A stretch of DNA of 43,920 nt, filler included, from Jimgerdemannia flammicorona (Eukaryota), in the NCBI GenBank assembly GCA_003990765.1. It is 2 parts of 2 records of this genome, joined end to end, with 100 filler letters (N's around TTAATTAATTAA, not from the genome) between each part and the next. Parts side by side here need not be neighbours in the genome. Positions count along the whole stretch, not along the records: positions 1 to 21,912 come from RBNJ01001366.1; 1 more part is not named here. One strand, given 5' to 3'. This document shows, one piece after another, positions 1-42,035 of the stretch (position 1 is its first letter; each line of letters begins with the position of its first letter). Made by a program: the position numbers and the translations under genes. A model generated the notes under the pieces. It was not told where the DNA came from, made no database searches, and saw only the letters and a list, made by a program, of their open reading frames with translations.

Positions 1-347
1 GCAGGCTTACTAGTTCCTTTGCTATCTCTTTGCTTTTGAACTATTTCGATCTGAGGTTTATTCACTCGAAGATACTGGGTTATTTATACAAGTTTGCTAG
101 CTATGAGAGGGTGGCTAAGTAATAAATGAGTCATTTGGACTTTGTCGAAACATTTGGACAATGTCTAAATGCTATACTAAATCGGGGTATTCGATTTGGA
201 TAATATCTAAAATTTAGACAATGTCTAAGAAATTAGACAATGTTGAAATCGAGGACTGCTAACTATAATACTATACTACTTTGGAAATGGGTGTGATTAA
301 GTGTCTATTCCCTATTTCCTTCTTCCAAATCTGGCTGTACCGTCACA
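1..347 (-). repeat. 3' LTR of E1 (partial)
   Basis: Matches 6258-6604 without gaps (offset 6257); minus strand begins TGTGAC right after a purine tract. Confidence 0.95.
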
Positions 348-357
348 ACTTCCTCCT
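348..357 (-). promoter_or_regulatory. Polypurine tract of E1
   Basis: Minus strand AGGAGGAAGT directly abuts the LTR start TGTGACG. Confidence 0.8.
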
Positions 358-384: not shown

Positions 385-846
385 CTATTCAAACTCCCAG
401 GCTTCAACGGTCTGTATGGTCTTGTACTGTGTAATTTGCTGCATAACTGTTTCCCAATGATGTCTTCTCACTTTCTTGAAGTCGGTAGGGATTACTCCTC
501 TCAGGTGGTCTATCGCTGCTTCATCTTCTCGGAATAACTTGTGGATCCTTTTGGCAACAGTGATCTGTGAGTGGGAGAGTTGACACTCGGCAATCCAGTC
601 CTCCTTGGTCTTTGCTGGATCCTGATTGAGCACCTGTCCAAGCTTGAAGTACTCTTGGAATTCTGCATGATATTGATAGGCTCTAAAGTGTGAGATCTAA
701 GAGAGATGAGTCTGCACAATACTCTAAATATCCTCGTAGAATGGCTCTATGGTCGGAGGCTCAGTGGTGTGCCATTGTCTTTCGATGGCTCTTTGGGCAG
801 CACTAGTGATCTTGAGTGCCATCGCAGTACTTTTGTTACTGGCCAT
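385..846 (-). pseudogene. Accessory ORF3 of E1 (~153 aa, two in-frame TAG stops), unknown function
   Basis: ATG at 846 overlaps the end of pol. Manual translation MASNKSTAMALKITSAAQRAIER...EFQEYFKLGQVL...QLSHSQITVAKRIHKLF...; similar to the LTR ORF of E3. Confidence 0.8.
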
Positions 847-3800
847 GGTATTTCTTGAGTCGGTTTCGGTGAATGGTGGTGGGGATTATTGTGCCTGAGG
901 GTTTTCGCAGCCAAAAGGTGGTTCCTTTTATATCTTGCACAAGGTAAGGTCCTTCCCACTTGGGCTCCAGTTTTCGTGACCATGAAGCTTCAACCATATT
1001 CCGATACACCAGGACTTTGTCTCCTATCTTGATGATCTCCAAGGGTTTGTGGGTCTTTTCCGCATTTCTCTGTTGTAGTGTCTGTGCCTTGGTTATGTAA
1101 TCCTCAGCCTTCTTCCTGATTTGGTGTAGTCTCCATATTTCCGTGTCCACATGTTTCCATATGACATCTCCATTGGATGATAGGGTTCCTTGAGAATATT
1201 CTTCTCCAAACAGCATTTCTCGAGGGGTAAAGCAGGTGCTTTGTGATCGGATATCCCGGAGAGCAGATAATGCTATTGGTAGATAGTGATCCCAGTTCTC
1301 GTAGTTATCACAGATCTTGGCGATAACATTCTTGAGGGTTTTGTTGGTCCTTTCTACTTGTCCGTTTCCTTGAGGGTGATAGGCTGTGGTCCGAATGTGC
1401 TGGATCTTGTATTTCTTATAGAGAACTTCGAAGAACTGGTTCACGAATTCGGTTCCTCTATTTGTAGTTACTTGTGTTGGGGTCTTGAACTGGCAGATGA
1501 TTTCCTTGTGGAAGAAATCAGCAATTGACTGTACATTGGCTTCCATAAGGGGTCCTGCTTCTATCCACTTCATAAAAAGGTCTACGATGACAATGATGTA
1601 TCAGTTGCCAGTCAAAGTCAAGGGTAGGGGGCTGATTACATCCATTGCAATGTGGGCGAATGGTACTGGTTCTATGTGTACTAATCCTGGGGCCTGATTT
1701 CGTTGGTCTTGTTTCTGTTTCTGGCATTTGTTGCAGGTCTTGACAAATTGTCTGATATCTTCCTCCATCCCTGGCCACCATATTGTTCTCCTTGCCTTGT
1801 CGTATGTATTTGTTCCTCCTAGATGGCCAAGTTCATATACTGATTTCATTGCTTACTCCTTCTTGTGTTCTGGTATGACTAGTAGTTTTCCTTTCTTCAG
1901 TGTTTCTCCATCGGTTTCAAATTGTTTCCATGTCCTGTTGATAATCGTTTGTGTCCATTCTTCCAGATGTTGGGGCATCTTTCGCTGTCTCAGGTATGTG
2001 ATGATTTCATAGTAGAGCTCCTTATTTATGATTGATTTGTTGGTTGGAGGTAGTTTGAGGTGTCCATGAGAGAACATCTGCATTGGAATTTGTTCTTCCA
2101 GGGTGGTGCATGATGGTTACATCATAGGCTTGTAACTTCATTATCCATCTGGCATAGATTCCCTTGGATTGTCCGGTTGTCAGTAGCCAGGTGAGAGCTG
2201 AGTGGTCTGTCTGGATGGTGAAGTGTCTTCCAGCCAGATAGTAGTGGAACTTTTCCACAGCCCAGATGACTGCAAGGCATTCCAACTTGTAGGACTCATA
2301 TTCTTTTTCAGCTCCTCGGGTTCCGCGGCTAAGATATGCAATAACATACTCTTTTCTGTCTTCTTTTTGAGCCAGGATAGCTCCTAGTCCTTGTGCACTT
2401 GCATCTGTCTGAAGGATAAATTCTTGGGTCCAATTGGGTCGTCTGAGGATGGGTACCTGAGTTAGTCTGACCTTGAGTTCGTCAAATGCTTTTTGTTGTC
2501 TGCCAGTCCACTGGAACTTGATATCCTTCTTGTTGAGTTCGTAGATTGGGCCTGCGATGTTGGAGAATTCTCTAATGAATCTGCAATAGTAGGAGGCAAG
2601 TCCCATGAAGGCTTGGGCTTCTGTAATGGTAGTAGGCCTTGGGTATGCTGCTACTGCTTGTATTTTGAGGGGGTCCGTGTGTGTTCCATCTCGATTGATG
2701 ATATGGCCAAGATAGGAGAACTCGATTTCCACAAACTTACATTTCTTGGGTTTGATATAAAGGCCATGTTGTCTTAGTCTCTCCATTATCTGCTGTATGT
2801 GCTGCAGATGTTCCTCGGCCGTCTTGCTGTAGATGATTACATCATCAATATAGACCATCATCCATCTTCCCATATTGTAGCGGAAGATTTTGTTCATCAT
2901 TCGCTGAAAGCTTGCTGGTGCATTGCACATTCCGAATGGCATTCGTAGGTAGATGTAGGTTCCGTCTGGGGTAATGAAGGCTGACTTTTCACTTGCCATT
3001 TCTGTGAGTCCGATTTGGTGGAATTCTGAGTATAAGTCCAGGGTGCTGTAGTACTGTGCTTCGTCTCCCAGTGTTATAAGGATATCACTGATGAGCGGCA
3101 GTGGTTGGCGATCCTTCTTGGTGACTGCATTGAGCTTTCTGTAGTCGATACAGAGCCTTGGGGCGAATTCTCCAGGTTTGCTTCCTTTTTTCGGGGCTAG
3201 TACAACTGGTGAAGACCAGGGGCTACTGGCTTCTTTGATGATGCCGGCTTCTTCCATCTGCTTGATTTCTTCTCTGAGCCATTCTTGGTAGGCTGGCGGG
3301 ACAGGTCTTGCTTTCTGGTAAATTGGTTTGGTGTCTCCAGTATCTACCTCATGATAGTAGTATGGGGTCTTTCCCTTGATATCCTTGAAATCCGTGGCAA
3401 GGACATCCTCGAATTTGTAGAGTATTTTCTTGAGTTTCTCCTTGAGTGGGAATTCGTCTCCAATGGTGTAACTGTGCTTGCTTGTGTTTTCCTCCTTCTT
3501 ATGCTCGAGTTCAGTGATCTTGGTGCTGGAAAATACTCCTCTTCCTGTGGATCCGAATCCTTTCTTTCTTCTTTTCGTTTCCTCCAGATTCTTGACTTCT
3601 ATGATCCTTGGCTGTATGATTGGGAAGATCAATATCTGTGCTAATCGGTCCTTCTTTTTGACTGGGAATGGAATTGTAGAATTGTGGTTCCTAGCAATAA
3701 GTAGAATTTCTCCCATATAGTCTGAATCAATGACTCCTCCTTCGATTGTGATTTCGCTTCTAGCCAGACTGCTTCTTGTCTTGAGAATCCCGACTTGATC

Positions 3801-4964
3801 CTTTGGGATGGTCATCTCCAGTCCAGTTGCGAGTAGGGTGGTTGTCTGGGGTTCCAGTACAGTTTCTTCTACTGTAGCAATGTCCATTCCGGCTGCATTT
3901 TCTGACTTGTAATCTGGCAAGACTGTATCAGGGTGGATCCTTCGGATCTTGACCTTGATTTCTTCTTCATCGTCACTGTCCTCCAGGAGGGCTGGTGGTT
4001 CATCATCTTCCTCCTTCTCTTCTTCTCTGATCTGTTTTTCGAGAGCTTTCTGGCTTCTTTCCTGGTAGATCTTCCTGATTCCGATAGTGCACTGGTAGCA
4101 ATCGTTGACATGCTCTATACAGTACATCTTGATTCCATGAGGACAGACTCCTTGTGGGGTATAGCCTTCGGCAATCTTCTTGCACCATTCTTCTTCACTC
4201 ATCCATCCAACTTTCTTCTTCTTTGGGGTAGTCACCATATAAGCTTCCTCTTGCTCACTCTCTTCTTCCTCCATATTGGGCAGAACTCTTTTGTTGACAT
4301 TGATGGGAATTCGTATCTTCTGTCCCTGATAAGTGATTTGTATCTTCTGGGTGTTGAGATCGATTACCGCCTTGGCTTTGTGAAGCCATTGATTGCCGAT
4401 GAGGATGTCATAGTTGGTGGCATTGGTTATGATTATATCTACTGGGATTGTTGCTCCTCCGATCTTGATGGGGACATCTCAGATCTTTCCCAGAGGTGTG
4501 GCTCTTGTGCCATCGGCTGTGACAAATACTAGCTTGGTTGCTTCTTCCACATCCCAACCTAGGCGGTCTGCTGCTTTCTTACTGAGGAGACATCCTCCTG
4601 CTCCTGTATCAATGATGGCCTCGAAGACTTGATCCTCAATTTGGCATGTTGCATAAGCGGAGGTTTTGCAATTGTTCTCACTTTCTTCTCCTGAGTCCTC
4701 TTGAACATTATTGGCCTCGGTTATCTTCCATCCTTGTTCCTTGGTTGTTTTGGCAAGTCCAAACCTCATTTGCTATCTGAATGTTGGGATTTCTGCGAGC
4801 TGACCAAAGGTTGCATTGACCTTTTGTTGACTGAGATCCTTGAAGATATCATACTTGAAGGTCTTGGTCTTGCAAAGCTTCTTTTCTTTTTCTCCTTCAC
4901 TGGCTGGAGTGGTTCCTCGGATGATATCTTGAACTGCTTGCTCTAGCTTGATATCCTGGTCCAT
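836..4964 (-). pseudogene. pol: pol of E1: aspartic protease, dUTPase, RT, RNase H, integrase (stops plus one frameshift near 2050-2080)
   Basis: AIIDTGAG (ORF 4479-4769); RLCIDYRKLN, YLRMPFG, VYIDD, LQTDAS, IQTDH (ORF 2022-4274); GHLG..WWPGM..CNKCQ (1601-1849); TAYHPQGNGQVER and WEGPY (836-1573). Confidence 0.97.
3543..3959 (-). other. dUTPase domain in E1 pol, between PR and RT
   Basis: Five trimeric dUTPase motifs: AGMDI, RSSLA, GVIDSDYMGEI, RLAQ, RRKKGFGSTG. Confidence 0.95.
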
Positions 4965-6013
4965 CTCTTTGGCTTAACTTTCTGTGGCAGTTTCCATCTG
5001 CTTTTCCACTGGGTTCTTCTTGGGTCTTCCTGGCAGTCTCTTGTAGGGTTCTTTGCGAACATCCTTCTTGGTGGTCTGAGCAGATAGGCCTCCCATTCTT
5101 CTTCATCAGAATCTCCGATCTCCTTGAAGGTAATTATATTGGCCTGCTCCTTGTTTCATATGGCATTGCTTGGTTGAGCCTTGCATTTGGTTTCACTCAT
5201 ACATTCATAGGAGTAGTGGCCTTCTTCTCCACAGCTGTAGTAGGTGCCTTTCTTCTTGTCTGAGGTGGCAGCAAACTTCTGAACAGGGCAGCGATCTCTT
5301 TCTCAGATTTCCTTTACCACATCTCCCAGGTGGGCAGTCATTTCAGCAAACCTTTTGGCAAGTTCCTCCATAGGGTCGCTGTTCTTTTGCTGCTCAGTAG
5401 CTTTTGGCTGAGGTGTGTTTCGATTGATCATTGTGGTGGGGATCACACTAGTTGCCTTGGGTGCCTCGATTCTGACTCCTGTAACTCTTTCCATTGTATG
5501 GTCTTGTGGGTGTCTGGCTGTCCAGTATCGCTGAGCATAGGTGACCCTCTGTAGTAGATCCAGAATCACTGGTGATGAGCGGATGGCCATGGCTATTTCT
5601 GGATGGACTCCTTTCATGAAGGTTGCTTCAGCTACTTGATCTTGGGTAGCAGCAGCATAATCTGCAAGAATTATCTGATATCGAATTCTGGTATAGAATG
5701 TATTTGGATCCTCACTCATTCCTTGGTACATTGTGTTGAGCTGATCCTTCAGGGCTTGCTTGATCTTGTCTGTGTAATATGTGTTTTGGAGCCAGGTCTT
5801 CTGTGCTGTCAGTACAGCATCGGCATCATTTCCTGCATGGGTTGCGGCTGTGAATACTGCTCTGGCAGGGCCTCATAGGCTAAAGGGCATGAGGGCTACT
5901 TGCTGTGCTGCTGTCAGAGTCCTTACGGCAGCATACTGCTCAAAATCATCAATGAAGGTGATGATTGATTCATCTGAGGTATATCCATGGAATACTGGCA
6001 GTCTCATATCCAT
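4945..6013 (-). pseudogene. gag: gag of E1
   Basis: RLPVFHG...FIDDFE capsid-like start, QG..E....FY.R motif, FMKGV, and degenerate zinc knuckle YYSCGEEGHYSYEC (~5200-5245). Boundaries approximate. Confidence 0.85.
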
Positions 6014-6110
6014 CTTGTCTGGATATTGGAGCTCGGTTTGTATAGTTGTTCGGGTAGTGGCGGTTGTTCATTGTTCAGCTTGAAAGTGAGGGATTCATCT
6101 TGAATCACCA

Positions 6111-6124
6111 GCCAATGGGCACCA
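6111..6124 (-). promoter_or_regulatory. Primer-binding site of E1
   Basis: Minus strand ...TTACA-ACT-TGGTGCCCATTGGC: TGG begins 3 nt after the 5' LTR. Cognate tRNA not assigned. Confidence 0.75.
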
Positions 6125-6127
6125 AGT

Positions 6128-6604
6128 TGTAACGTAGTGGATACTTACTCTTGAAAGTACATTGGATTTCTGTATCTTGAAAACTTGACTGTTCTGACTC
6201 TCGCAGAGTTTCTTGAAGTTGCAGGGGAGGGTGGGTGAGTTCGAAGTGTATCTGCTCGCAGGCTTACTAGTTCCTTTGCTATCTCTTTGCTTTTGAACTA
6301 TTTCGATCTGAGGTTTATTCACTTAAAGATACTGGGTTATTTATACAAGTTTGCTAGCTATGAGAAGGTGGCTAAGTAATAAATGAGTCATTTGGACTTT
6401 GTCGAAATATTTGGACAATGTCTAAATACTATACTAAATCGGGGTATTCGATTTGGATAATGTCTAAAATTTAGACAATATCTAAGAAATTAGACAATAT
6501 TGAAATTGAGGACTGCTAACTATAATGCTATACTACTTTGGGAATGGGTGCAATCAAGTGTCTATTCCCTATTTCCTTCTTCCAAATCTGGCTGTATTGT
6601 CACA
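6128..6604 (-). repeat. 5' LTR of E1 (477 bp)
   Basis: TGT...ACA termini; minus-strand TATAAATA (~6338-6345) and AATAAA (~6314-6319). Confidence 0.93.
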
Positions 6605-7460
6605 ATATTCAAAATACTTATAAAATATAATATATATAATCTACTTATAAATAAGAGATATTAATATATATATGTAAATATAATATAGTAAGGGAGACTT
6701 TTGAAAGCCTGAAAAATATCTTATAATCAACTGCTAGACTTTGTCAAAATATAGATATAGAGGGCATATTATTTTATAATATTTAAAAAAGTCTTATTTC
6801 TTTAATATATTGCTCAAACTTTAGCTTTAGAGAGTTTTTATATATAAGTAAATCAGTGATCATGTACTCTGTAGAGATATATTCTAAATATATAGTAACA
6901 TTTTCTATATATTTCTATATAAAATTATATTATATATCAATATATTTTATTCTACTATAATGTACTAAGTTCTTAGCAAATGTTATTATTGACTAATTAT
7001 CTTGTTTAATTAGTATAGAGTTCTTTTGAGTGAAGTTGAGCTCTTTTAATAATTCATAGAGCTATATATAGCTTCTTTTATTACTATTGGTAATATCTAA
7101 TACTTTGTCTATATTGATAATATTGTTATAAAACTCTACTTATATATCTACTATAAGATGACAGATCTTTTACTGATATGGAAGAGGTACCTACTTATAG
7201 ATTAGTGATTATTAAGATTATCTACCCAATTGATATTATATATATCAAATAGCTAGATGTCATTTCTCTTATTATTTCTCTTACTTAATCTAATATTACT
7301 ATCATTCAATATAAGTATATAGTATATTATACTTTTAAGATATCTAAATATTCTCTTAATATATAGTACTCCAATGTAAATTATTATAGTAAAAGAAATA
7401 CTATACTATTTTATTCATAACATATAATATATTGGGCCTTATTTCTAGTATAAGATATAT
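6605..7460. other. Very AT-rich, CpG-free stretch, probably a heavily mutated TE relic
   Basis: TpA-rich with no ORFs; family not recognisable. Confidence 0.45.
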
Positions 7461-10620: not shown

Positions 10621-10779
10621 TAAAATTCAGTAGGTCCTGGGGGTTCATGGATAAGTTGGTTGGCCTTGTGGAATATTTAATATCTTTCAAAATAATAAAA
10701 AGGTAAAAAACCCTGAGAACTCAGCCCAGAGTTTGTGGCCCAAGTGGGCAGCAGTCAGCAGGGTTGGCGGTGGCAGCAG

Positions 10780-22012: not shown

Positions 22013-24271
22013 CCCCCATCCCTTTCTGAACAAGAATACCCACTTTCCCCCTCCAAACTGCTGCACCCCCCCATTCCTTAGTCCAATCCTGTAAATCGAC
22101 ATCGGCCTCATACCGAACATCCTATAATAAGAAGAGGTCCGCATCCAGATCCCGAAGCCAACCAAAAATGTACTTCCTCCTAGCCACCCCCCGTAGCCCA
22201 TTAACATTCAATGAGAATATCCTGGTTGTACTGTTTATATTGGGTAGATATTGTAGAAGAGACCTCAACCTATAATTCCATGCTCATCTCATCCCTCACC
22301 AAGTCCAAGAGCCGCTCAGCTTCCAATTCACCCTCCACAATATCCCGAGCATCCAGTGCCGCCAAGATTTCCTGACACTCCACCCTGTCCACCTTCTCTA
22401 TATCTGCCCTGTAGTCCAAGCAGACTGTGCGCCACTTCTCCAGTCCCTTCCTCAAGTTCCACAAGACAAGTGCTCTGTTGCTCACAATCCTTCTAAGCTC
22501 CTCCTAATGCTGATCATCAACCTGACACTCAACAGACTCCAGGAGGACAGCTAGGATCTCATTCCTCATCTTCCTCGGCACCTCTTCCCCATGTAGAATC
22601 TCTTCCCAATGCCTCTCCTCCATCACCCTGAAGTCCTCACCCCCCAACTCCTCAGCCGCTACCCCTTCCAGGGTCTTCCACATCCACTTCTCCTCATCTA
22701 CCACCTCTGCCGCCCCCTGAGCAATTTGTCCCCCATCCACCTCAGGGTCCACCAGCACACTCCTCCTCACTGACTCATCCCACTCTTCATCCGGCACATC
22801 CATCAACTCCTCCTCGCCTCCTGCCCTATTCGGAACACTATACTGAGGGCGCCCACCTTCGCCCATCTCAGCATCCACCTCCAAGTTATCCTCCCTCACT
22901 CCCCGACTTCAATCTGAGCCCCGCCCTGGGCCATCTCACCCCCGTCAGCCCAGGTGCTCTCCTGCAACCCTGCAGCCCCCTCCCTGGGGCTTCCACCAGT
23001 TCTACCCCCGCCCATCTTCGCCAACAACTCCTTCTGGATCCTCCTCCCCTGCATCTTCTCCCAAGCCCCCTTCTCCATCTGAACCCTCTTTCCATCCACC
23101 TCCCCCACCACTGTCCTGGCCTCAAACTCCTTCCAGGCTAATCTCCTCCTCGCAACTGCCCCTTCTAGGTCCTCCAGCGCCTCCAACAAGTCCTCTTCCT
23201 CCTCCTGAGTCCCCTTCACCCTAGTGACCTTACACTCCACCGGTCCCCACCTCAGCACCGCCGGCCAGTCCCTCGACTTCCCTGTATTCTCCTTTCCAAC
23301 CAGTCTCACCCTGACATCAACGTCTCCAGTCCTAAGCTCTGTGCCCTCCCAGACCTTGAACCCCACATCCACAATCTCACCATACTCCTTGATTGCCTCC
23401 ACCACCAACTCCCTGGTCCTTTCCTTCAACACTGTGGGAAGGTCCAACACTGTCAACTGCACCACCCGGGGGTCCCAGTGTATACACCGGGCCATAGGGA
23501 CCACAACTCTACCAACCATCACCTCCTTCTCCATGGCTGCCAACAAGGCGTCCTCCTCCTCAAACCCCACCTCAACCCCTTCCTTTCCTCTCAAGAACTT
23601 CACCGACGCTGCTCCCTTAGCCTCCTGCGCCACCAGCCCCAACATCATCCTCGCCATCACTGCCAAGCCCTGGAAGCACATCATGACCATGAATTCAGAC
23701 CTCAACTTCTTGAGTAACAGGGCTGACACCATGCCCGTCACCCCATCCGCCAGGTCTCCGGGCCTCGTGCCCACTCCAAGTCCCGAATTGCCAACTGCCA
23801 TCACATCTGGATTTTTTGCCAGATCCCCAGTCACAGCCCCATCGGCAGTCACATCTCCAGCCCCTACTCTGGCCCCTTCCCTACCACCAGAAGTACTCTG
23901 GGGTGCACCCCCCTGACCCCCAGCAGTAGCCATCGATGCCTTCCCCAGGCCCAGCCAACTTTCCAGCCCAGAAGCCATCTTCCCCAACCTGACCTTGTCA
24001 GCAAAGGTCGTCCTCTCCCCTCCTCTTTGTCACAGACCTCCCCTTCCTCCGCTGCTGGGGCCACGGCTAGCCATTGAGGCCCCTGGCATCCCCAAACCAT
24101 CTCCCCTCCTCCCCACCTGCTGCCAGCCAAAGGCGCTGTTACTCCCCTGGCCAGTACGCTCACCAGATCAGTTGTTGCCATCCATGTTGTTAGTCATCAG
24201 ATACTAAAAACGTTGTAGAAAGTATTGTCTGAGTCTTGTATCACCCGAATGTTACAGGTGAAAGGCGCCCG
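22013..24271 (-). mobile_element. LINE-D: 5' UTR, ORF1 and start of ORF2 endonuclease, cut by the gap; interrupts Gypsy E2
   Basis: ORF2 start NVNGLRG...DADLFLL at ~22210-22013; the E2 RT stops abruptly at 24272. Confidence 0.88.
22270..24185 (-). pseudogene. LINE-D ORF1 (RRM-like core), with stops and one frameshift
   Basis: VQLTVLDLP...EYGEIVDVG...RTGDVDVRV...WPAVL pattern typical of L1/Tx1 ORF1; homologous to the LINE-A ORF1 relic. Confidence 0.8.
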
Positions 24272-29480: not shown

Positions 29481-31606
29481 GAGTGTAATCAAACGAAAAA
29501 CCAACGTCATTTCGTTTTTGTTTTGAACAGACACATTGAAGCTCGGCTTACCCAGCTGCAGATTTGGTTACGATCAAAGATCAAAACTCGCACAGTGATA
29601 CAACAGGTCTTTTTGGTCCGCCTTACCCTCTGCTGGAAAGTATCCCTTTTGCGGAATATTCATACGTCATGGATGTTTACAGCACAAAAATGCGAGAGTT
29701 ACCCATGCACGTGTCGGACCTTTCTTACATGCACGCCACGTTCCAAGAAAGGGTTGTGCCTGGTTTATCACAATATAGGGGGTTTTCAGATGTCATTACC
29801 TGTAAATGCATTCCGATACTGCAACGCGGTTTTGGTGATAATTCGAATAGAAGGGGGATGCTGGCAATGTTTTTGACCTCACGCTGAGGGGCCAGCTCTG
29901 CTTCACCGTGTCGATTTATTTTCCTAAACTCAGCATTACCCTATTAAGTTCGTCAGCGTTCCTATGATGACTTGGAATATAATAACATGCTTTCTCGCAC
30001 GCCGTATACTTGGCCACAATCCAGGGATACCCAGGATCGTTAAATATCGGTAGGTGAACCTATTTCGCCCATATCTCATATCGAGCAATTGCAGTGTGCA
30101 GTGTCCAGCCTTTTGTCTCTACGGCATGCCATTTAACAGCTAAAAATTACTCTATACGCATATGTCATACAGTTTACCGACGCTTTACAATCTCTAACGT
30201 AACAACAGTGCTTCACAGCCTTTACGACCTCCAAACGTGGGTCCAAACATTGATGTGCAGATTGACGTTCCAATTATTTTTTCTCTCACAATGTAATAAA
30301 ACCTTGCAATAAAATTCTCGTATTTCGTATACAATTATGCGCCTTTTTACACATACGAAATGGATGAAAGCAATTCAAACCTGGAAGATAGCCTGATATA
30401 TCTATCACGTATATAAATGGCGCGGGCGGAAGACGCGTGTGTGCATCAATCTGCGAATTTTGTGAAGGAGTGTCATGCTGGACGCACTGAAATCGTTCGT
30501 GTTGTCAGTGACGATGTCTGTGAAATGTTGACATAGTATTACCGATGCTTTGGTTTGTGTATATAGCCATGTTGCTTAACGGGAATGACAAATTTTTTTG
30601 CGTAAAATAACCTGTAGTCTCAAGCAACCCAACACCTAACCTTAGTAAGGCCAAGATGGCTAGAGCCTGGTTCTCTCTACTCTGAGCTACTCTTACCCTC
30701 CCCTTCTTGCCAATAAAATGCCTCCACCAAGGCCACAATTGGCCCTCTCATATAAATAATATATATAGTTGTAAAGTAAAAAAGGAAGTGGCATGCAGGC
30801 CTGAGAAATTCCCAACAATGAGTTACTCTACCCCACCTTTGCTACCCAGTGTCAATCTATATACTTAATGAATAGATCTGCCATCTGACCACTACTCTCT
30901 CTACCCAGCTTTGAGTCAGAAGTTACCATCTGGCTTGTGACACCAGTACCTCAAGTAGCACTGCCATCATACCTGGTCTTGCCCCAAAGGGCTACTGGAC
31001 ATGACCCCAGTACCTCAAGTATCCCTACAGTACTGCACCTGATCTATCAGCTCTCTACTCTCCAAAGCAGCAAAGTAGTTACTCTGCTGATCTTCTTGCT
31101 GATCAACATACCATCACTGGCCAATTGCCAGACCTGATCATTACTGCCATCTTATATTATACCATCTGATATCTACCAATCACTAGTTGCTATTACACTA
31201 TGTATCAAATCACCTCATCTGCTTTGGCCAATTATCAGCTATATCTTCCAAAATCTTCTAAGTGCCTTCTGAAATCTCCCAATACACCTCTATATCTTGA
31301 AGATATAGTGAGAGTCCCCCCAGAATGAAAGAAAGCCCCAGGGCCTGACCCATATCCCCCAGCCTGCCAGAGTATATCAGTAAGTTGAATGCTCACCATG
31401 AAGCCAGCTATGCTGTTAGAAGAAAGACACCTCTTCTCCTTGAGTAGTTGCTAGTGACTCCCAGAGCCTGCATTACACCATCTGGCCCTCAAAATAACAA
31501 AACTCTTAAATTCTTGAAAACTATAGCTTTGAGGTTAGGGCAACTTGACACAATTGAACTCCTCTTCTCTTGCCACTTCTGATACACCCAATCTTGGAGC
31601 ACTAAT

Positions 31607-33666
31607 TGTAAGAGAGTTACTTTTTAGAGTAACCATTACATAGTTCTGGAAAGGTTTTTCTGGATATTCTGGATATTCTGGAAGACTGTTTTCTTATGGT
31701 CAAGATCAATTTCATATGGAGTATGTCCTCTATGCTTATTGATTTCAAGATCGGATTGACATCTCAACCAAAGTCCTTATTTGGACTAGTTCTGGATGTT
31801 CAGGATTTTCCATATTTCAGGAAGTTCAAGAAACTAAGACCAGCTTAGTTGAATTGGCATATCGCTGCAGACAATACCCAATTAGGAAATTTCATGAGGG
31901 GGTTAGGAGTGGGACCTAATGGAGAGCGGATTTACATAAGAGTAGTTTGTGGGTTAAGAAATAGGTTTATTTGCTATTCATGATATTGCTATACTAGGAG
32001 TAGTTGTGTGAAGGGATATTGTGGGGAAGTATTCAGGAATGTTCTTGTGTGTTCGAGTCTGAGATTCTGAGGTCTGGGGGAGGGGGTATTTATACTAGTG
32101 AGGGGCTATCTGGACTATGCTGGATATGGATGTAGCACTAAGTGCCTTGCTGAGTTGGAATGCAGTCACATAGTACAAGTGCGATCTGACATATCAAGAG
32201 ATCATCTGACTGCTGAGTCAGTTCACAGTCACATCATACAAGGCTAATCTAACTATATTATGACTGCTAGGCTATTTATGGGTTTAGGCACTATCTGGGT
32301 AGTCTTCGATGACATCACCATCGATTGCATCATCTCTGATGAAGTAGTCATCTAGGAATAATGGTTTGCGGATTACTTCTCCTTGTTTGCTGAGGTAATA
32401 ATACATTGGAACTTTGTCTCCATCCCACAAGATGGCATCATCAGTCTCATATGCTGGATAAGGTGTTGGTGGGCAAAGGAGGGGTACATCATTTTCACTT
32501 TCATTGGATTCACTGTCTGCATACCTTCTGTAGATTACAGCACTATAAGTTGCAGGGTTATAGTATGCTGGTGGCTGTGGTTCATGTCGCTCATACTCAG
32601 GTGGTGGAGTGGTTGGTTCAATCTCGAGGGTTATCTGAAGATACAGATTGTGTTCTCCGGTCTCTTCATTGTAGTTGAAGTAATCAGGGGTAAATGCAGA
32701 TTGGTATTCATGCCAGTAGTCATTGTCCCAATAAGTCTCGTATGCAGTTATGAACTGTTGTAAGTTCATCGGCAAGGTTGATGGTGTGATCAGAGTTGGC
32801 AGAGATCCTTGGCTAGAGGTCATGTTGGTGTCAGAGGGATCATTATCTTCTGCTTCATCTTCATTGAAGTGGATTATATCATAGATGTCCTTCATGGCAT
32901 ATCCAACTTGGGGCATTTGCAGGATGTGATCATTGGGGTGGGGGAAGGTTTGGTCTGTGGTTTTGACGTACTCGAGGTACTTCTGGTTGAGTTCTTGTAT
33001 CATATCATTGATTTGACCATAGGACAGGGTAGCAACCATCACTGGTAGTAACTCAGAGGTGGGGAATAAAGGTGCTATACTCATAGAAGAGTTCTTGATG
33101 TTTGCAGGCGATGAGCTTCTGGTGTTGAGACATCTGGATAATGTCTGTATCATGGTAGTATTCAACCATGTCTTCCAGGAGGTGGCCGATCTGGTAGTAG
33201 CTTGAGATTTGTCCGATTCGGTGGGCCTCGCTAAGCATGTTCAGAGCATTCCATTGGGCTTCCACGAAGTAGAGGGGTGCCAGGCTATGGATATTCATGA
33301 GGGGCAGAGGGGGTGTAGCTCGGTTGACAATGGCATTCCAAATGTCAGCACAGATACAGTTATAGATCTCAGTGGTCATATTTGTGTATTTGGAAGTTGT
33401 GGTTGTTGTTTGTTTTGGTTCTCTGATTCGACACATCTTGGTGCTCAGTATATATGCATTTGGTCCTGATTGGTAAGATTCCATTTGTGTAAACCTTGTG
33501 TTCTGTGACTTCATATTGACTCAGCTTTGTGTGCTGTGACTTCGGTTTGACTCAGCTTCATGATCAAGCAGGTGATTTCCAGATTTGTTCAGGGTCATGT
33601 ATGATTTCAGTGGCTTGTTCAGAGGGTGACATGTAATTCCAGTGGCTTGGAGGTTGTGTGCTTACA
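31607..33666 (-). repeat. 3' LTR of E3 (2060 bp)
   Basis: Collinear with 39974-42035; minus-strand TATAAATA (~32086-32093) and AATAAA (~31966-31971). Confidence 0.97.
32284..33379 (-). pseudogene. LTR(U3)-encoded ORF, ~365 aa ancestrally; frameshifted by a 2-bp deletion near 33040 in this copy
   Basis: ORFs 33053-33514 and 32284-33165 are one frame in the other LTR; the ATG of MTTEIY is conserved in both copies. Confidence 0.85.
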
Positions 33667-33680
33667 ACTCTCCCCTTCTT
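33667..33680 (-). promoter_or_regulatory. Polypurine tract of E3
   Basis: Minus strand AAGAAGGGGAGAGT abuts the 3' LTR. Confidence 0.9.
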
Positions 33681-33879: not shown

Positions 33880-36800
33880 TAGTTATTCAAGGAATCATAT
33901 TCCTGAACTAGGTCAGTAGCATTCTAGAGATTGGTCTTGGGTTCCCAGGTTGCATCATGGATTGGGTAACCTTTCCATTTGACAAGGTACTCAGGGTGGC
34001 TCTTGTTGCCACGTTTGTTGAGGATTTGTTCAACTTCATACTCTTCTTGGTCATTAATAATGACAGATGCAGGTGGTTTGGTGGTCCGGTTTGGAAATAG
34101 CTTGTCATCATTCTCATTATATCACTTGAGATGTTGGACATTAAAGACTGGGTGAATCTTAATGGTGTCAGATAGTGCCAGTTTGTAGGAGGTTGGAGAG
34201 ACTTGTGTGATGACTTCAAATGGTCCAATGAACTTGCTGTTCAGCTTTATAGATAGTCTGTGCTTGAGGTTGTCAACTCGGTATCCTCTGATGTCTAGTA
34301 GGACTTTTTCTCCAATATCAAAAGTTTCTTCTTGGCAGTGTTGGTTAATATACTGTGATTGTTGTTCTTGAGCTCGCGATAAATTCTCGATAGCAATCTG
34401 GCTTAAATTGCGCATTCAAAGTAAGAATTCTTCAATGGCTTTGACTGTGGAGGGTTCTTCAGTGATTCAGATAAGTGTCAAAGGGGTGTTTGGATTTTGT
34501 CCAGTGTTGGCGAAGAATGGGGTCATTCCAAGAGAGGCTTGCTTGCTATTGTTATAAGCAAACTCAACTGCAGTAAGGTATTCATGCCAATCATCTTGTC
34601 TATAGGAAACATAGTTCCTTAGTATTTGTTCCAGAGTTTGGTTCATTCTTTCAGTTTGACCATCAGTTTCTGGGTGAAAGGCTGTGGATAGTGCAAGTTT
34701 TGTTCCAAGGTATGCATGGAGGGCTTTCCAAAAATGGCTAGTGAATTTCGGATCTTGGTCACTAACAATGATCTTAGAAAGACCATGATAGCGGAAGATA
34801 TTGTCAAATAAGAGTGTGGCTATGTCTGGTGCTGTTGCAGTAGTGGTAGTAGACACAAAGTGGGCTTGTTTGCTGAGATAGTCTACAAAGACAATAATTG
34901 CATCTTTCCCATTCTTGGTTCGGGGTAGTTGTATAATGAAGTCCATAGAGATTTGTTCCCAATTTGTGAATGGTACTGGGATAGGGTGGAGTAAACCAGG
35001 TTTTGCTAGTGTTGAGGACTTGTTTTGTTTGCAGACATCATATGAAGTAATATAGGTTTTGAGCTGATCTGCCATTCGGGGCCAATAGAAGTTCTGGGAG
35101 ATAACTTCATAGCATTTGTCAAATCCTAAATGTCCAGCTGTAGGGGCATCATGATATTCGAATAGGATAGTCCTTCGGAGGTCTCAGTTGTTTGGGATAT
35201 ACAATCTGTCCTTGTAGTAGATAGCATTGTCCTTGAGTTGGTATTGATTGTACTGGGTATGCTTGTCAGCATTATCATTGTTCAGGATTTCTTGGAGTGC
35301 TTGAGCTTCTTTATCATCAACACATGCTGCAATGATTTGTTCCATGATAGTGTTGGTAACCAAGGTCAGAGTTTGGATAACCTCTTCGATTGGTGGTCTG
35401 GAGATTGTATTGGCAACAATATTTTCCTTGCCAGAGTGGTACTGGGTTTCATAGTCAAAGTTGGTGAGGACTTTCATCCATCTGGCTTGTTTTCAAGAAA
35501 GGGTAGCCTGTGTCTTGATGTTGACTAATGACTTGTGGTCAGTCAATACAGTGAAGTGTACTCCTTTTAGGTATGGTCGCCATTTGATCAGAGTGTCTAC
35601 GATGGTTAGTATTTCCTTCTCATGAGTTGCGTAGTTGATTTCGGCATCGTTGAACTTGCAGGAGTGATAGGCCACAGGGTGTCCTTCTTGCATGAGCACT
35701 GCTCCAAGGGCTAGGTCAGAGGCATCAGTAGTGACTTCATATAGTAGGGCAGGATTTGCTGCTTGAAGTACTGGAGTGGTTATCAGGACATCTTTCAGTG
35801 CTTGAAAGGCGGTATCTTGTTCGGGTCCCCAAGTTACAAGATTGTTGAAGTCTTTCTCTTGTTTCATGGTCCAGGGTTGTTCTTGTTTCTTGCTGTGCTT
35901 GTTCATTTGGGTGAGGGCAGTAGCAATTTTAGCAAAGTTGGCAACAAATCATCTGTAATAGTTTGCTAATCCCAGGAATGACTGGAGGTCTTTTAGCTTC
36001 TTGGGTGTGGGCCAATCTTTGATTGCAGAGATTTTGCTGGGGTCCACTTTGATTCTATTTGGAGTGACAATGTGTCCAAGGAATTGAATTTCTTTCAGAA
36101 GAAATTTGCACTTGCTGAGTTTTGTAAAGAGTTGGTTTTCTCGGAGTTTCAGTAGTACTAGTTTAAGGTGTTCAAGATATTCCTTTAGGGTTTTGCTGAA
36201 GACTAGGATGTCATCAATGTAAACAACACCGAATTTGTCCAGGTATGGATATAGAATGGTATTCATTAGTGTCTGGAAGATTTCTGGAGCATTAGTTAAG
36301 CCAAAGGGCATAACCAGAAACTCGAAGTGTCTATAGCGAGTTCGGAAAGCTGTCTTGTAGATGTCTTCTTCTTTCATGGCAATTTGCCAGTAACCATTTT
36401 ACAGATCAAAAGAGCTCATGAATTGTGGGTTAGTGAGCCTATCGAATATTTCATCGATCCTTGGTAGTGGGCAATAGTTCTTGATGGTCTGTTCATTGAG
36501 ATCGTAGTAGTCAATACACATTCGCAGATCTCCTCCTTTCTTGACAACAAAGAGGACTGGTGTACCATAGGGTGATATGCTGGGTCTGATGAATCCTTAT
36601 TCTAGGAGTTCATCAATTTCTTTCTTGAGTGCATTGATTTCTCTTGGAGACATATGGTAGATTGACTTGAAGACTGGTTTGGCATCTGGGATAGTCTTGA
36701 TTGCGTGGTCTACTGCTCATTTGGAAGGTAGGCCTTTCGGGAGCTTCTTTGGGAATATATCTTGGAATTTCTGGAGTAGTGGTCTGACACAGCTGTCAAC

Positions 36801-39800
36801 TTTGGAAAAATCTTCTTCAGAGTTCTCGGGTTCTCCTTTGGATGGTTGGATGGAGATGGCAAAGAGAGGGCATTTCTTGGCCAATTTCTTGAGTTGTAGC
36901 TTATTGATGTAGGTGATCTTTGGTCCAGGGTCACTAGAATTAAGTGGGTCCTTTTCGCCTTGCAGTTTGAAGTTGTGGCATCCTTTCTTGATGGTCAGAG
37001 AATGGTTTACCCAATCAATCATGGGGTTCTCTTGTTTCAACCATGGAGTTCCAAGGATGATTTCATTGTCAGGGAGTGGTATGATCTGGAGAGTAACATG
37101 TACTTGATAGTCACCAATTTGGAAGGGTAGGTTGCGGACTTCTTTGCTAATAACATGTGAGATTCCATCAGCTGTAGCAACTGCTTGAGTTTGCTATACT
37201 GGAGAGGTAAAGACCTTGAGTCTGTTAGCTGTCTCTTCATTGATGAAGTTGCCTGAGGTGCCACTGTCTATCGTAATCTTGACAGATGCTCTGTTGATAA
37301 AAGCCTTAATGGTTAGCAGTTTGTCTGATCCAATGGTGGTGATTTCAGTTGTAGGAGCTTTCCTTCTATTGGTTCTTCTTTGAGCCAGTTCATTGACACA
37401 AGAGAAGCAATCATCAATCATTCGGGAAGAGTACATTCCAATGCCATGAGGGCATCAGCCACTTGGTACATATCCATCTTCGATCTTCTTGTAGAATTAT
37501 TCTTCTTTGCTCATAGTAGGTTGGGCTGGGGCCTTGTTTGATGAGCCAAATCCTTTGGATCCTTGGATGGTAGGCAGTAATTCAGGGACTTCCTTGACTA
37601 TCAGAGTTGACTCGATTTTTTTGAATAGGATCTGGGTGATGCAGAAGCCAATAGGGATCTTGAAGGGTGTCCAACTGTGGTTTCGGATGAGGACAATGAT
37701 TTCGCCTGTGAAATCTTCATCAATGACTCCTCCTTCTACTGAGAGTCCTTTTAGTACTAGGCTACTGTGACAGCATATTCTTCCAACATGTCCTTCAGGG
37801 ATTTGGATACTGATTCCTGTGTAGACTTGTTTGACTTCTCAGTTGGAAACTGTAGCTTCTTTGGCTGCATACAGGTCATATCCAGCTGCTTTTTGACTTC
37901 CTTTGGTTGGGGCCTTCTCAGTTTGTCTTAAATTGACAATGTCCAGTGTTCTGGTGGTCACATTGTTGAGGTGGTGCAGAGTGGTAACAGTTGCTTGTGT
38001 TGCTGTTTGGGGTTTTTGGTTAGGGCAGGCACTGGCCATATGTCCTGTCTTTTGGCAATAGAAGCATGCTCCACTTCTTCGAAGTTCATTCCTTTCGCCT
38101 TCAGTAAGTTTCTTGAAGGTACTGGGCTGGGTGGGTTCAGGATTTCTGAGTGTCTAAGAGGTGGATGTGGAGGGAGCTCGAGATGCTTCATGCTTGGGTT
38201 CTTCTTTCTTGGTCCAAGTCTTTTCCTTATTGTTGAATTGCCTTTGGGGCAGAATTGGTCTGGCTGTTAGAATTCGCTTGACCATGGTCTTGATTCTTGT
38301 CAGGCACCATTGTTGGTGATCACAACCAACTGGGTGGCCTTGTTCTCGGATTTTTCTAGTAAGCCATTCAGGCAGGGCATCAAATAAATGGTCTGCTCTT
38401 GTACCATTTCATGCTTCATCGTTGGTGATGTATCCTAGGCCCACAGTGTTCAGGAGTGACTTGAGTTTTGTACAGAAGGTTTTGAATTCTTCTTTGCCAT
38501 ATACATCAAATTTGAGGTTGCGGAGTTTTACTCGAGATTCAGCAATCATGGTTTCGCTGCGGTATTGAGCAATCATGAGTTGTTTGAGTCCAGGAGCTGC
38601 AGGATGGGCTCCATATCCTGGGGCATTGTTCGCTGCATTCTGAGAAACTACTGCAGGTCAAGTATCCTATGTGAGGGGTTTTTCAAGAAGGGTTCACCAC
38701 CATTCTTCGGCAGGTCCTCAGAAGAATGTAATAACTCAGTGGACATAGGCTGTAGTGGTAGCAAAGAGTTGTTCCAGAGTGTGGTCTTAATTGTTTGTCA
38801 CAATGCGGTCAGCAACTCGCTCATTGGTCCATTGATTGGCTTCAAAGTTGGTGTCAACTACACTAATGAAGCTTTGGACTTCTTGTGCAGTGCCATTGAA
38901 GGTAGGTAGGCTCAGATTTTTGGTAGGTTGGGTCTGTTCAGCTAAGGCAGTAATGGTTGCTGCCATTATAGCTACTTGGGCTGTGAGGTCTAGAATCTGT
39001 TGGTTCACCATGTTGTTTACTGGAGGTGCTTGGACTGCTTGTAGTGGTATTACTGGTACTACTTGAGGTACTGGCGCAGAGTGTGATGGGGTTCTTTGGG
39101 TCTGTGTAAGTTGCTGGAGTAGTAGTTGTGGATCTGGAGTGAGGGCTTGATAGATAACTATTTGTTGCTGTGTAGGTGTATTCTGTCCTGATGGAGGTAC
39201 TTCTCCTTCAGTGGTATATCTGGGATTGAATTCACTGAGATACTCCTTCTCTTCTTTGGTTTGGTCCCCATGTAATTGAGTTTGCTCAGCATCAAAGTAG
39301 ACAGAATCAGTTGTATATCTGATTTCAGACAGACTTAATTCAAAGTCAAGTTCAGGTTCGGTATTGGTTTCAGATTCAGGTAGGGCTGTAGCAGGGCCTG
39401 CTTCAGGTTCAGGGTCAGGTAGTTGATGAAGGGTTTCTCTTGCTTCTTCTTTAAGAATATGGTAGGCCTTACTGTTCTGGAATCGGTAGTATAATATGGT
39501 CTTAGTCCTGGTGCGGTGAAAGTTGGTAGAGTTGAGCCACTTGGCTACAGAGGCTTGGGCTTTGTGAGGAACTAAGGCTAGAAAGACTGCTGCTGGTTGT
39601 CCTAGGTCACTCGGATTTGTGGAGCTGACAAAACTCTTGTTGAGGAGAGTAAAGAAGGCTTCAATAAGACCTTCTTTGTCTTGACTTGCTGGGTGTAGTG
39701 CAAGGAGTTCGGTGAATAGGGTTTCGCCTATTTGCTGGTTTAACCTGAGTACTTCTTTCTTTGAATGAAGTTTGTCCCACTTGTTGCAGGTGTGGAGGTC

Positions 39801-39973: not shown

Positions 39974-42035
39974 TGTAAGAGGGTTACTTTTTAGGGTAAC
40001 CATTATGTAGTTCTGAAAAGGTTTTTCTGGATATTCTAGATGTTCTGGAAGACCGTTTTCTTATGGTCAAGATCAATTTCATATGGAGTACATCCTCTAT
40101 GCTTATTGATTTCAAGATCAGGTTGACGTCTCAACCAAAGTCCTTTTTTGGACTAGTTCTAGATGTTCAGAATTTTCCATACTTCAGGAAGTTCAAGAAA
40201 CTAAGACCAGGTTAGTTGAATTGGCATATTGCTGCAGACAATACCCAATTAGGAAATTTCGTGAGGGGGTTAGGAGTGGGACCTAACAGGGAGCAGATTT
40301 ACTTAAGAGTGGTTTGTGGGTTAAGGAATAGGTTTATTTGCTATTCATGATATTGCTATACTAGGAGTAGTTGTGTGAAGAAATATTGTGGGAAAGTATT
40401 CAGGAATGTTCTTGTGTATTTGAGTCTGAGATTCTGAGGTCTGGGGGAGGGGGTATTTATACTAGTGAGGAGCTATCTGGACTATGCTGGATATAGATGT
40501 AGCACTAAGTGCCTTGCTGAGTTGGAATGCAGTCATGTAGTACAAGTGTGATCTGATATATCAAGAGATCATCTGACTGCTGAGTCAGTTCACAGTCACA
40601 TCGTACACAGCTAATCTAACTATATTATAACTGCTAGGCTATTTATGGGTTTAGGCGCTGTCTGGGTAGTCTTCGATGACATCACCATCGATTGCATTAT
40701 CTCTGATGAAGTAGTCATCTAGGAATAATGGTTCGCGGATTACTTCTCCTTGTTCACTGAGGTAATAATACATTGGAACTTCGTCTCCGTCCAACAAGAT
40801 GGCATCATCAGTCTCATATGCTGGATAAGGTGTTGGTGGGCAAAGGAGGGGTACATCGTTTTCACTTTCATCAGATTCACTGTCTGCATACCTTCTGTAG
40901 GTTACAGTGCTATGAGTCACAGGGTTATAGTATGCTGGTGGCTGTGGTTCATGTTGCTCATACTCAGGTGGTGGAGTGGTTGGTTCAATCTCGAGGGTTG
41001 TCTGAAGGTACAGGTTGTGTTCTCCAGTCTCTTAATTGTAGTTGAAGTAATCGGGAGTGAATGCAGGTTGGTATTCGTGCCAGTGGTCATTGTCCCAATA
41101 AGTCTCGTATGCAGTTATGAACTATTGTAAGTTCATTGGCAAGGTTGGCAGTGTGATCAGGGTTGGCAGAGATCCTTGGCTAGAGGTCATGTTGGTGTCA
41201 GAGGGATCATTGTCTTCTGCTTTATCTTCATTGAAGTAGATTATATAGTAGATATCCTTCATGGCATATCCAACTTGGAGCATTTGCAGGATGTGATCAT
41301 TGGGGTGGGGGAAGGTTTGGTCTGTGGTTTTGATGTACTCAAGGTACTTCTGGTTGAGTTCTTGTATCATGTCATCGATTTGACCATAGGATAGAGTAGC
41401 AACCATTTTGCTGGTAGTAACTCGGAGGTGGGGAATAAAGGGGCTGTACTTGTAGAAGAGTTCTCGATGTTTGCGGGCAATGAGCTTCTGGTGTTGAGAC
41501 ATCTGGGTAATGTCTGTATTGTGGTGGTGTTCAACCATGTCTTCCAGGAGGCGGCCGATCTGGTAGTAGCTTGAGATTTGTCCAATTCAGTGGGCCTTGC
41601 TAAGCATGTTCAGAGCATTCCATTGGGCTTCCACGAAGTAGAGGGGTGCTAGGCTATGGATATTCATGAGGGGCAGAGGGGGTGTAGCTCGGTTGATAAT
41701 GGCATTCCAAATGTCAGCACGGATACGGTTGTAGATCTCAGTGGTCATGTTTGTATGTTTGGAAGTTGTGGTTGTTGTTTGTTTTGGTTCTCTGATTCGA
41801 TGCGTCTTGGTGCTCAGTATATATGCATTTGGTCCTGATTGGTAAGATTCTGTTTGTGTAAACCTTGTATTCTGTGACTTTGTATTGACTCAGCTTTGTG
41901 TGCTGTGACTTTGGTTTGACTCAGCTTCATGATCAAGCAGGTGATTTCCAGATTTGTTCAGGGTCGTGTGTGATTTCAGTGGCTTGTTCAGAGGGTAATA
42001 TGTAATTCCGGCAGCTTAGAGGTTGTGCGCTTACA
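39974..42035 (-). repeat. 5' LTR of E3 (2062 bp)
   Basis: Collinear with 31607-33666. Confidence 0.97.
40651..41748 (-). pseudogene. Second copy of the LTR ORF (365 codons, one frame, stops from CGA>TGA and CAG>TAG)
   Basis: ORFs 41122-41538 and 40651-40920 are in frame with ATG 41748. Confidence 0.85.

Follow-up and report, generated by a model that had tools for sequence, protein, structure and literature searches.

Foamy-virus Tas (Bel1) is the product of a small 3' regulator gene that reaches up to or into the U3 region of the long terminal repeat (LTR), is served by an internal TATA promoter in the preceding coding region, and specifies an acidic C-terminal part. Mouse mammary tumor virus (MMTV) sag is a retroviral open reading frame (ORF) in the LTR U3 and encodes a type II membrane glycoprotein. 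Additional genes are also described in LTR retrotransposons: sense-strand ORFs between pol and the 3' LTR, termed aORF-3S, are described from plants and insects (PMC7264820), and fungal Gypsy elements have been drawn with an "add. ORF of unknown function" (PMC2864245). In the account of Cer1, a Ty3/Gypsy element of Caenorhabditis elegans, the CERV protein (517 amino acids [aa], with three domains including a G-protein-like one) is translated from a five-exon spliced mRNA that overlaps gag and is needed for export of the genomic RNA (PMC10309623). The report on bdelloid rotifer LTR elements places dUTPase between protease (PR) and reverse transcriptase (RT), gives an env-like protein, a GDSL esterase, or a DEDDy exonuclease as the product of ORF3, and records no chromodomain in any rotifer lineage (PMC5408684); dUTPase between PR and RT is also reported from basidiomycetes (PMC5408684; PMC2864245). 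Here we describe an accessory ORF of two Ty3/Gypsy elements, E1 and E3, found in a 43,920-nucleotide (nt) stretch of Jimgerdemannia flammicorona DNA (GenBank assembly GCA_003990765.1; positions 1 to 21,912 from RBNJ01001366.1, joined through 100 filler letters to a part of a second record), which is referred to below as the window.

E1 lies on the minus strand, and the window starts inside its 3' LTR. Its accessory ORF is on the sense strand between integrase (IN) and the polypurine tract, directly 3' of pol, with 27 nt separating its stop codon from the polypurine tract; an earlier note on this DNA had placed the ORF after IN at 846..385 on the minus strand, and both coordinates and strand were correct. 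The E1 copy is interrupted by in-frame TAG codons at codon 41 (726..724) and codon 50 (699..697). As with the described aORF-3S, the place and strand are the same, the ORF is conserved over copies, and it would provide no function that the basic gag-pol cycle requires, whereas the aORF-3S in that account are mostly env-like with transmembrane (TM) segments and the accessory protein has neither a TM segment nor a Pfam family (PMC7264820). The ORF was found on the sense strand 3' of pol in E1, in E3, and in L001, a sister of E1 on a metagenome contig; it occurs in several lineages and is under selection. It is a new family among the additional ORFs of LTR retrotransposons. The rotifer elements, as reported, offer a further likeness: their dUTPase lies between PR and RT, pol is followed by a third ORF, and divergent retroelements have an ORF type in common (PMC5408684). 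They differ in that the accessory ORF came out as nonenzymatic in every search and that E3 contains a chromodomain. On the reported distribution of this dUTPase arrangement and the lack of chromodomains in rotifers, a fungal host is the likelier.

Homology and selection of the accessory ORF

Compared directly by BLASTP, the E1 and E3 ORFs share 15/55 identities (E 0.006 for a single comparison), a match that is weak alone. A profile (A4) of 20 relatives from both subfamilies described below, built without any E3 sequence, was searched against the 846 six-frame ORFs of the window. The best match, at 24.1 bits (E 1.2e-6), was the E3 copy carried by the 5' LTR; the truncated copy in the 3' LTR scored 13.0 bits (E 0.0032), with the next unrelated window ORF at E 0.052. 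None of 2,000 composition-preserving shuffles reached the A4 score of either copy (maxima, 8.0 and 11.4). The second-subfamily profile alone also detected E3 (19.3 bits, E 3.8e-5, 0/2000 shuffles), and a profile of the nine closest E1 relatives (A2) gave a marginal result, with 8.5 bits, E 0.091, and 1/2000 shuffles for one copy and 4.8 bits and 30/2000 shuffles for the other. Alignment of A4 with the two E3 copies by hhalign extended over 140 columns and set the first methionine of one on that of the other (probability 65.7%, E 5.8e-5), and exactly 60 residues precede the common motif YYQIG in both E3 and the second subfamily. These comparisons of protein sequence establish homology between the E1 and E3 ORFs at the level of a remote family, over about 135 to 140 N-terminal residues. 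The earlier note had aligned the E1 ORF with the N-terminal ~130 aa of the ORF in the E3 LTRs and had called the two elements divergent; with the A4 profile the homology withstood the shuffled controls, and RT-RNase H identity between E1 and E3 is 33.6% over 476 aa.

Relatives of the E1 ORF were few. A word-indexed search of 5.8 billion proteins gave 6 at E<=0.01 among 10 candidates (62 to 80% identical), and cluster look-ups added 2 full-length family members; three relatives (P0005, P0012, and P0016) are intact at exactly 153 aa. P0020 provided entry to a second subfamily of 165 to 169 aa, represented by metagenome proteins alone (among them P0029, P0033, P0045, and P0053, encoded on contigs of 5.9 to 8.0 kb), and a profile-seeded search returned 26 family proteins at E<=0.1 among 620 candidates. 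The C-terminal ends read ...EAWEFE in the E1 type and ...ELDEWD[LV] in the second subfamily, giving a C-terminal [DE]-x-W-[DE]-hydrophobic motif. When 1.84 billion cluster representatives were searched exhaustively with a profile, five proteins were returned at E<=0.001: three belong to the E1 type, one (P0020) belongs to the second subfamily, and the fifth, a repeat protein, is probably a spurious match; no related cellular family was found among these representatives at that threshold. Family members that are named by their source are called "hypothetical protein," none of 37 pattern matches in viral contigs was confirmed as belonging to the family, and no description of it was found in the open-access literature searched. 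DNA related to E1 occurs in soil and root metagenome runs. When positions 1 to 2000 of the window were compared with four contig runs, hundreds of related pieces at 85 to 99% identity, and no joints, were among the matches listed. Judged by sequence similarity, homologues of the accessory gene are present in three lineages, namely, the E1 type, the second subfamily, and the E3 type.

L001, a locus among the matches listed in the metagenome-contig scan, is a 6,479-bp contig that is 74% identical to E1 DNA over a 6.3-kb alignment. Its gene order (gag, PR-dUTPase-RT-RNase H [RH], IN, ORF) is that of E1, and its ORF is intact, at 5795-6253, right after IN. Over 151 codons of the accessory ORF, the proportion of nonsynonymous differences between E1 and L001 (pN) was 0.198 and that of synonymous differences (pS) was 0.82, which is saturated; the corresponding pN/pS values were 0.175/0.772 for gag, 0.161/0.696 for PR-RT-RH, and 0.074/0.534 for IN. 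Differences fell on codon positions 1, 2, and 3 in the numbers 36, 26, and 88, the excess of synonymous over nonsynonymous change was highly significant (Fisher p = 9e-28), and the remaining two reading frames contain 5 to 9 stops. By this codon pattern, the accessory ORF is a real gene under purifying selection comparable to that on gag, and the check for such selection that the earlier note had proposed came out in its favor.

The same data bear on whether the ORF might be a passenger, that is, a host gene fragment transduced and spread by recombination without a role, or whether the resemblance of E1 to E3 might be due to chance. Unrelated retroelements are reported to share genes in bdelloid rotifers (PMC5408684), and the match of E3 to the nine closest E1 relatives was marginal (8.5 bits, E 0.091). 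However, purifying selection acts on the ORF across elements with saturated synonymous sites, the ORF has an equal place in the window element and in L001, no cellular family appeared among the 1.84 billion representatives, and the broader-profile score was matched by 0/2000 shuffles. We therefore regard the passenger explanation as remote.

The LTR-borne copies of E3

The E3 insertion is complete, lies on the minus strand, and has the 5-bp target duplication ATTAG on both sides. As the earlier note had it, E1 has no chromodomain (no Chromo match in Pfam at E<=1) and E3 has one (PF00385, E 6.4e-15). The E3-type accessory gene is about 360 codons long. Between it and pol come first the polypurine tract (at about 33680..33667, just outside the LTR) and then the LTR start with 287 nt of LTR sequence; because the LTR start is upstream of the gene, the gene is inside the LTR and has been doubled along with it. 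The position of the gene is alike in E1 and E3, where it is the first thing 3' of pol, and it is the LTR boundary that differs. The earlier note had described a gene kept across lineages in different positions: it is kept across lineages, and the positions reduce to a single one, 3' of pol, with a shifted LTR boundary.

TATA-like sites occur in the E3 LTR at 33454 (LTR position 213, TATATA, 75 nt before the ATG) and 32094 (LTR position 1573), an AATAAA occurs at 31971 (LTR position 1696), and the ORF stops at about LTR position 1383. Since the TATA-like site at 1573 and the AATAAA at 1696, the usual promoter/poly(A) pair, are downstream of the ORF stop, the gene would lie in the presumptive U3, an assignment made from consensus motifs alone. 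The E3 gene thereby resembles MMTV sag: a long LTR contains it entirely, the presumptive genomic promoter (TATA 1573) lies downstream of it, and it is duplicated with the LTR. It differs in that its protein is without a TM segment.

The E3 LTRs are 93.3% identical over 2,063 columns; a single 2-nt indel and 136 substitutions, 128 of them transitions, separate the two. The 3'-LTR copy of the gene retains the homologous N-terminal domain to about 32980 and has a frame shift near 33040 that is private to it, and the three stops of the 5'-LTR copy are likewise private. Because each lesion is confined to one LTR, the E3 gene was whole at insertion, and since the divergence of the ORF (6.8%) equals that of the flanking LTR (7.3% and 6.2%), decay since insertion has been neutral. 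All three accessory copies in the window are dead. Contig variants of E1, among the matches listed, are almost all transitions too. The transition-heavy decay of the E3 LTRs and the E1 variants looks like cytosine deamination of a methylation- or repeat-induced point mutation (RIP)-like kind.

Predicted architecture of the accessory protein

The best AlphaFold model, made with 31 aligned sequences (pLDDT 74.5, pTM 0.69), has helices at residues 6-18, 35-73, 88-101, 105-110, 116-120, and 124-135, followed by a tail (137-167) below pLDDT 50. The tails of family members have isoelectric points (pI) of 4.05 to 5.0, 0 to 2 basic residues, and conserved C-terminal aromatics; the E3 tail is much longer, acidic, and rich in proline and tyrosine, with PPEY and PPAY motifs. 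PPxY is a binding motif for WW domains (Nedd4/Rsp5) and a late domain in retroviral Gag. The two E3 motifs, at about 32600-32560 (minus strand), occur in the two LTR copies alike; since these copies were a single sequence when the element inserted, this does not amount to independent conservation. For the family, the model predicts a helical domain of ~135 residues, after which comes an acidic, aromatic tail that is disordered and differs in length among members.

The maximum 19-residue Kyte-Doolittle mean was 0.19 to 0.86 for the in-frame sequence of six proteins, with no TM helix, and no env family was found for the accessory family in Pfam. By these sequence criteria the accessory protein is not env, as had been concluded earlier from the lack of a signal peptide or TM helix. 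The earlier suggestion of a helical, possibly helix-turn-helix (HTH)-like domain held in part: the AlphaFold model is helical, but likeness to HTH, DUF3102, or DUF1016 had neither Pfam nor significant fold support. The resemblance to the two DUF families in particular stays unsupported. An hmmscan of 31 members at E<=10 listed eight families, the commonest being TBK1_ULD (7/31 members, best E 0.016), and neither DUF3102 nor DUF1016 was among them; in a Foldseek search of BFVD, a DUF3102 phage protein stood at rank 36 (E 2.6, probability 0.25, TMq 0.38, root mean square deviation 8.9). The ESM Atlas gave no usable match for P0029, and for P0005 it gave unnamed mixed-taxa clusters and one HTH_3-bearing cluster (15% of members) at 0.92, none of which was taken as a lead.

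Conserved upstream region and models of expression

The region preceding the accessory start codon is unusually conserved. Over the 170 nt that lead up to the ATG, E1 and L001 share 94% identity, compared with 74% overall, and of 114 fifty-codon windows the one here is the least diverged at synonymous sites (0.367 versus a median of 0.685). The longest perfect run in the whole alignment is a 49-nt C/A-rich block in this region (Table 1); other long invariant runs are at the primer binding site, the LTR TATA region, and the junction of the polypurine tract and LTR start, where 23 nt are identical. The pattern TATA[AT]A occurs three times on the 6,605-nt E1 sense strand, in the two LTRs and as TATAAAAG before the accessory ATG, and L001 carries TATAAAAG at an equal distance (5709, with the ATG at 5795). 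The start context TACCATGGC is the same in E1 and L001, placing the start codon of both in an ACCATGG context, and the start methionine occupies one alignment column in both subfamilies and is aligned with the E3 start codon. In E3, an A/C-rich leader follows the TATA-like box and precedes the ATG. No RNA structure was detected in the 49-nt block, which folds worse than 197 of 200 shuffles (z = +1.68). We consider the block a candidate leader or cis-element of an accessory mRNA.

These features fit a model in which the accessory gene is transcribed separately into a 3'-co-terminal mRNA. For E1, transcription would begin at TATAAAAG, within integrase coding sequence, and the 49-nt C/A-rich block would belong to the leader; for E3, the U3 TATA-like box located 75 nt before the ATG would serve as the promoter, which would make a self-contained promoter-ORF-poly(A) unit of each LTR. 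We put an mRNA of this kind, from the internal TATA of E1 or the U3 TATA-like box of E3, a little short of an even chance. The arrangement would be like that of foamy-virus Tas in having a 3' gene, a candidate internal TATA, a proposed 3'-co-terminal mRNA, and a folded N-terminal part joined to an acidic C-terminal part, and it differs in that no relation of sequence or fold was detected and the promoter here is a conserved consensus match.

The 49-nt block spans exactly the overlap of the IN and accessory frames, and a need for double coding, or a reinitiation element, would also explain it. On that account, the ORF would extend Pol at its C terminus, ribosomes entering it through a +1 frame change or by reinitiating after termination at the integrase stop, and the extension would act as an integrase tether in place of the chromodomain, which is missing from E1. 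The accessory start codon does overlap the end of the integrase frame, 8 nt upstream of its stop (838..836), the accessory frame is open for 13 codons farther upstream in both the window and L001, and E1 is without a chromodomain. In E3, however, pol and the ORF are kept apart by the polypurine tract and the first 287 nt of the LTR, which makes fusion impossible, and E3 retains a chromodomain besides the accessory ORF. The conserved start methionine column, its alignment with the E3 start, and the ACCATGG context also speak against an extension, as does the distance from start to integrase stop, which is 8 nt in the window and 44 nt in L001. This explanation seems to us quite improbable.

The block could alternatively hold a 3' splice site (AG at 855..854, 8 nt before the ATG) for a spliced subgenomic mRNA as in complex retroviruses, with the product a Rev- or CERV-like export factor for unspliced genomic RNA. 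The C-rich invariant sequence ends in CAAG just before the ATG, and hydrophobic spacing like that of an export signal is found in 7/14 tails. CERV of Cer1 supplies a precedent in the published account (PMC10309623). Nevertheless, no conserved GTRNGT donor was seen by eye in the aligned leader region, the block shows no evident branch-site consensus, no RNA-binding motif of the Arg-rich or zinc-finger kind was seen in the accessory protein, and the E3 gene sits in an LTR with a TATA-like box of its own. We think splicing rather unlikely, and return to a separate, internally initiated mRNA as the preferred reading.

The protein from such an mRNA might be a trans-acting factor that influences how its own element is expressed or how the element's RNA is handled, with the folded domain binding the target and the acidic aromatic tail recruiting a host factor. 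The earlier note had put forward a trans-regulator or anti-silencing factor, a reading that may hold. A trans-acting regulator or adaptor is suggested by analogy with CERV and with the small regulatory genes at the 3' end of complex retroviruses, and we advance it tentatively, as a possibility somewhat on the doubtful side. Like CERV as described, the accessory protein is lineage restricted, belongs to Ty3/Gypsy elements, and is without known relatives, and the action in trans on its own RNA that is reported for CERV is for the present protein a proposal only; the accessory protein differs in its length of 153 to 169 aa (about 360 in E3), in its place 3' of pol, and in having one predicted helical domain (PMC10309623). 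Overall, the best explanation is a genuine third gene of a set of Ty3/Gypsy retrotransposons, probably of a fungal host, that would have its own mRNA and act in trans; to this explanation as a whole we assign about an even chance.

Several observations weigh against this explanation. The TATA and AATAAA sequences are consensus matches alone, and the accessory ATG overlaps the end of integrase (the stop comes 8 nt after it in the window and 44 nt after it in L001), an overlap that makes coupling to pol translation possible. The estimate of selection comes from one DNA pair, the window and L001, and E3-type relatives elsewhere numbered 0 at E<=0.01 among 417 candidates. Four of the five AlphaFold models had pLDDT values of 54 to 58, with 74.5 reached in one alone, and an earlier model from 9 sequences had a value of 50.5. 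The folded domain, with a pI of 6.2 to 9.2, is not markedly basic, which disfavors nucleic-acid binding, and the nuclear export signal (NES) pattern, fitting only 7/14 tails, was dropped as a defining feature. Known families offer no guide to function: Pfam gave nothing over the cut-off for window ORFs and relatives, PHROGs gave nothing consistent (3/31 members match an unnamed family, best E 0.0083), the PDB sequence search with A4 had a best E of 0.31, and fold searches of the pLDDT-74.5 model reached a best E of 0.78 with Foldseek against PDB and a best Z of 3.7 with VIA. With respect to the earlier note, which had named a match to a known retroelement protein as a reason to abandon its reading, these searches of Pfam, PDB, and PHROGs found no such identity.

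Other features of the window

Coordinates of E1 and E3 are given in Table 1. The gag TGA of E1 (5873-5875, minus strand) comes after ~64 codons in the context ...SL*GPAR... and is at the same place in L001 (771-773). Because this stop is retained even though synonymous sites are saturated, it is more suggestive of programmed read-through, or of a short independent ORF upstream, than of decay. Between gag and protease, a 42-nt run at 4832-4873 on the minus strand (...KTKTFKYDIFKDL...) is the second-longest invariant run between E1 and L001, and it may be a further cis-element.

Three Gypsy remnants with dUTPase are present, all on the minus strand, with the domain at 3540-3920, 37500-37910, and 24928-25626. 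The E1 order is PR, Cys/His-rich stretch, dUTPase, and RT, and that of E3 is gag zinc knuckle, dUTPase, Cys/His-rich stretch, PR, and RT. A profile search of window ORFs found no accessory-ORF remnant in the third dUTPase-bearing element remnant (about 24.7-29.4 kb), and a profile match at +30058..30309 (E 0.05, 34 columns) was judged to be noise. Diverged RT-bearing repeats at 15196-16382 and 20234-21420 are 72% identical and have an inverted relative at 43098-43896. Strand asymmetry is marked at 14000-24000, where GC skew is +0.34 to +0.44 at 14-22 kb and -0.51 at 22-24 kb, and a GC-rich 377-codon ORF at 24029..22899 has no Pfam match. A G-rich tandem array of six copies (units of 85 to 116 nt, 62 to 74% identical to the reference copy) adjoins the remnant of a hAT dimerization domain (E 0.0008, below the cut-off), at 10743-11394 and 10207-10512.

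Table 1. Coordinates of the E1 and E3 features in the window
Feature	Position (nt)	Strand	Remarks
E1 3' LTR	1..348	minus	Clipped by window edge; 95.4% identical to 6258..6605
E1 polypurine tract AGGAGGAAG	357..349	minus	Directly before 3' LTR
E1 accessory ORF	846..385	minus	153 codons plus stop (387..385); start codon 846..844; pseudogene copy
49-nt invariant block	853..901	minus	E1 = L001; C/A-rich; between TATA-like box and accessory ATG; overlaps last integrase codons
TATA-like TATAAAAG	925..932	minus	86 nt upstream of accessory ATG, inside integrase coding region; candidate internal promoter
E1 integrase	1852..836	minus	Two frames (1852..1601, 1600..836); Pfam rve
E1 protease, Cys/His-rich stretch, dUTPase, RT, RNase H	4772..2022	minus	Pfam RVP_2, dUTPase (1.9e-26), RVT_1, RT_RNaseH
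E1 gag	6067..5303	minus	In-frame TGA at 5875..5873, also in L001
E1 primer-binding-site-like TGGTGCCC...	from 6124	minus	By eye
E1 5' LTR	6128..6605	minus	Repeat with 3' LTR covers 6605..6258; inner end near 6128 by eye
E3 3' LTR	31607..33666	minus	2,060 bp; TGTAAG...CTTACA
E3 accessory ORF, 3' LTR copy	33379..32284	minus	Start codon 33379..33377 (LTR position 288); stop 32286..32284
E3 chromodomain	34121..33927	minus	PF00385, E 6.4e-15
E3 gag zinc knuckle, dUTPase, protease, RT, RNase H, integrase, SH3, chromodomain	33927..38153	minus	Pfam; all fragmented
E3 5' LTR	39974..42035	minus	2,062 bp; TGTAAG...CTTACA
E3 accessory ORF, 5' LTR copy	41748..40651	minus	Single frame; stops 41589..41587, 41124..41122, 41034..41032

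Significance

Accessory genes separate simple retrotransposons from complex retroviruses. To our knowledge, very few retrotransposon accessory genes are known outside animals and plants, and almost none has a known function. The case described here is that of a small selected gene in at least two Gypsy lineages at 34% RT-RNase H identity, with a candidate promoter and a variant internal to the LTR. In its fullest form, which we consider unlikely, the proposal would make these elements "complex" retrotransposons: a Ty3/Gypsy family with a dedicated trans-acting regulator, of a fold without detectable relative, and its own internal promoter, the gene having moved into the LTR in the E3 lineage so that any LTR, even a solo LTR, would function as an autonomous promoter-gene-poly(A) unit and could supply the factor in trans to the whole family. 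If the protein is indeed a regulator, a counter-silencing factor, or an RNA-handling factor, the gene would offer a tractable entry to the self-control of retroelements; otherwise, it adds a well-defined new family to transposon annotation.

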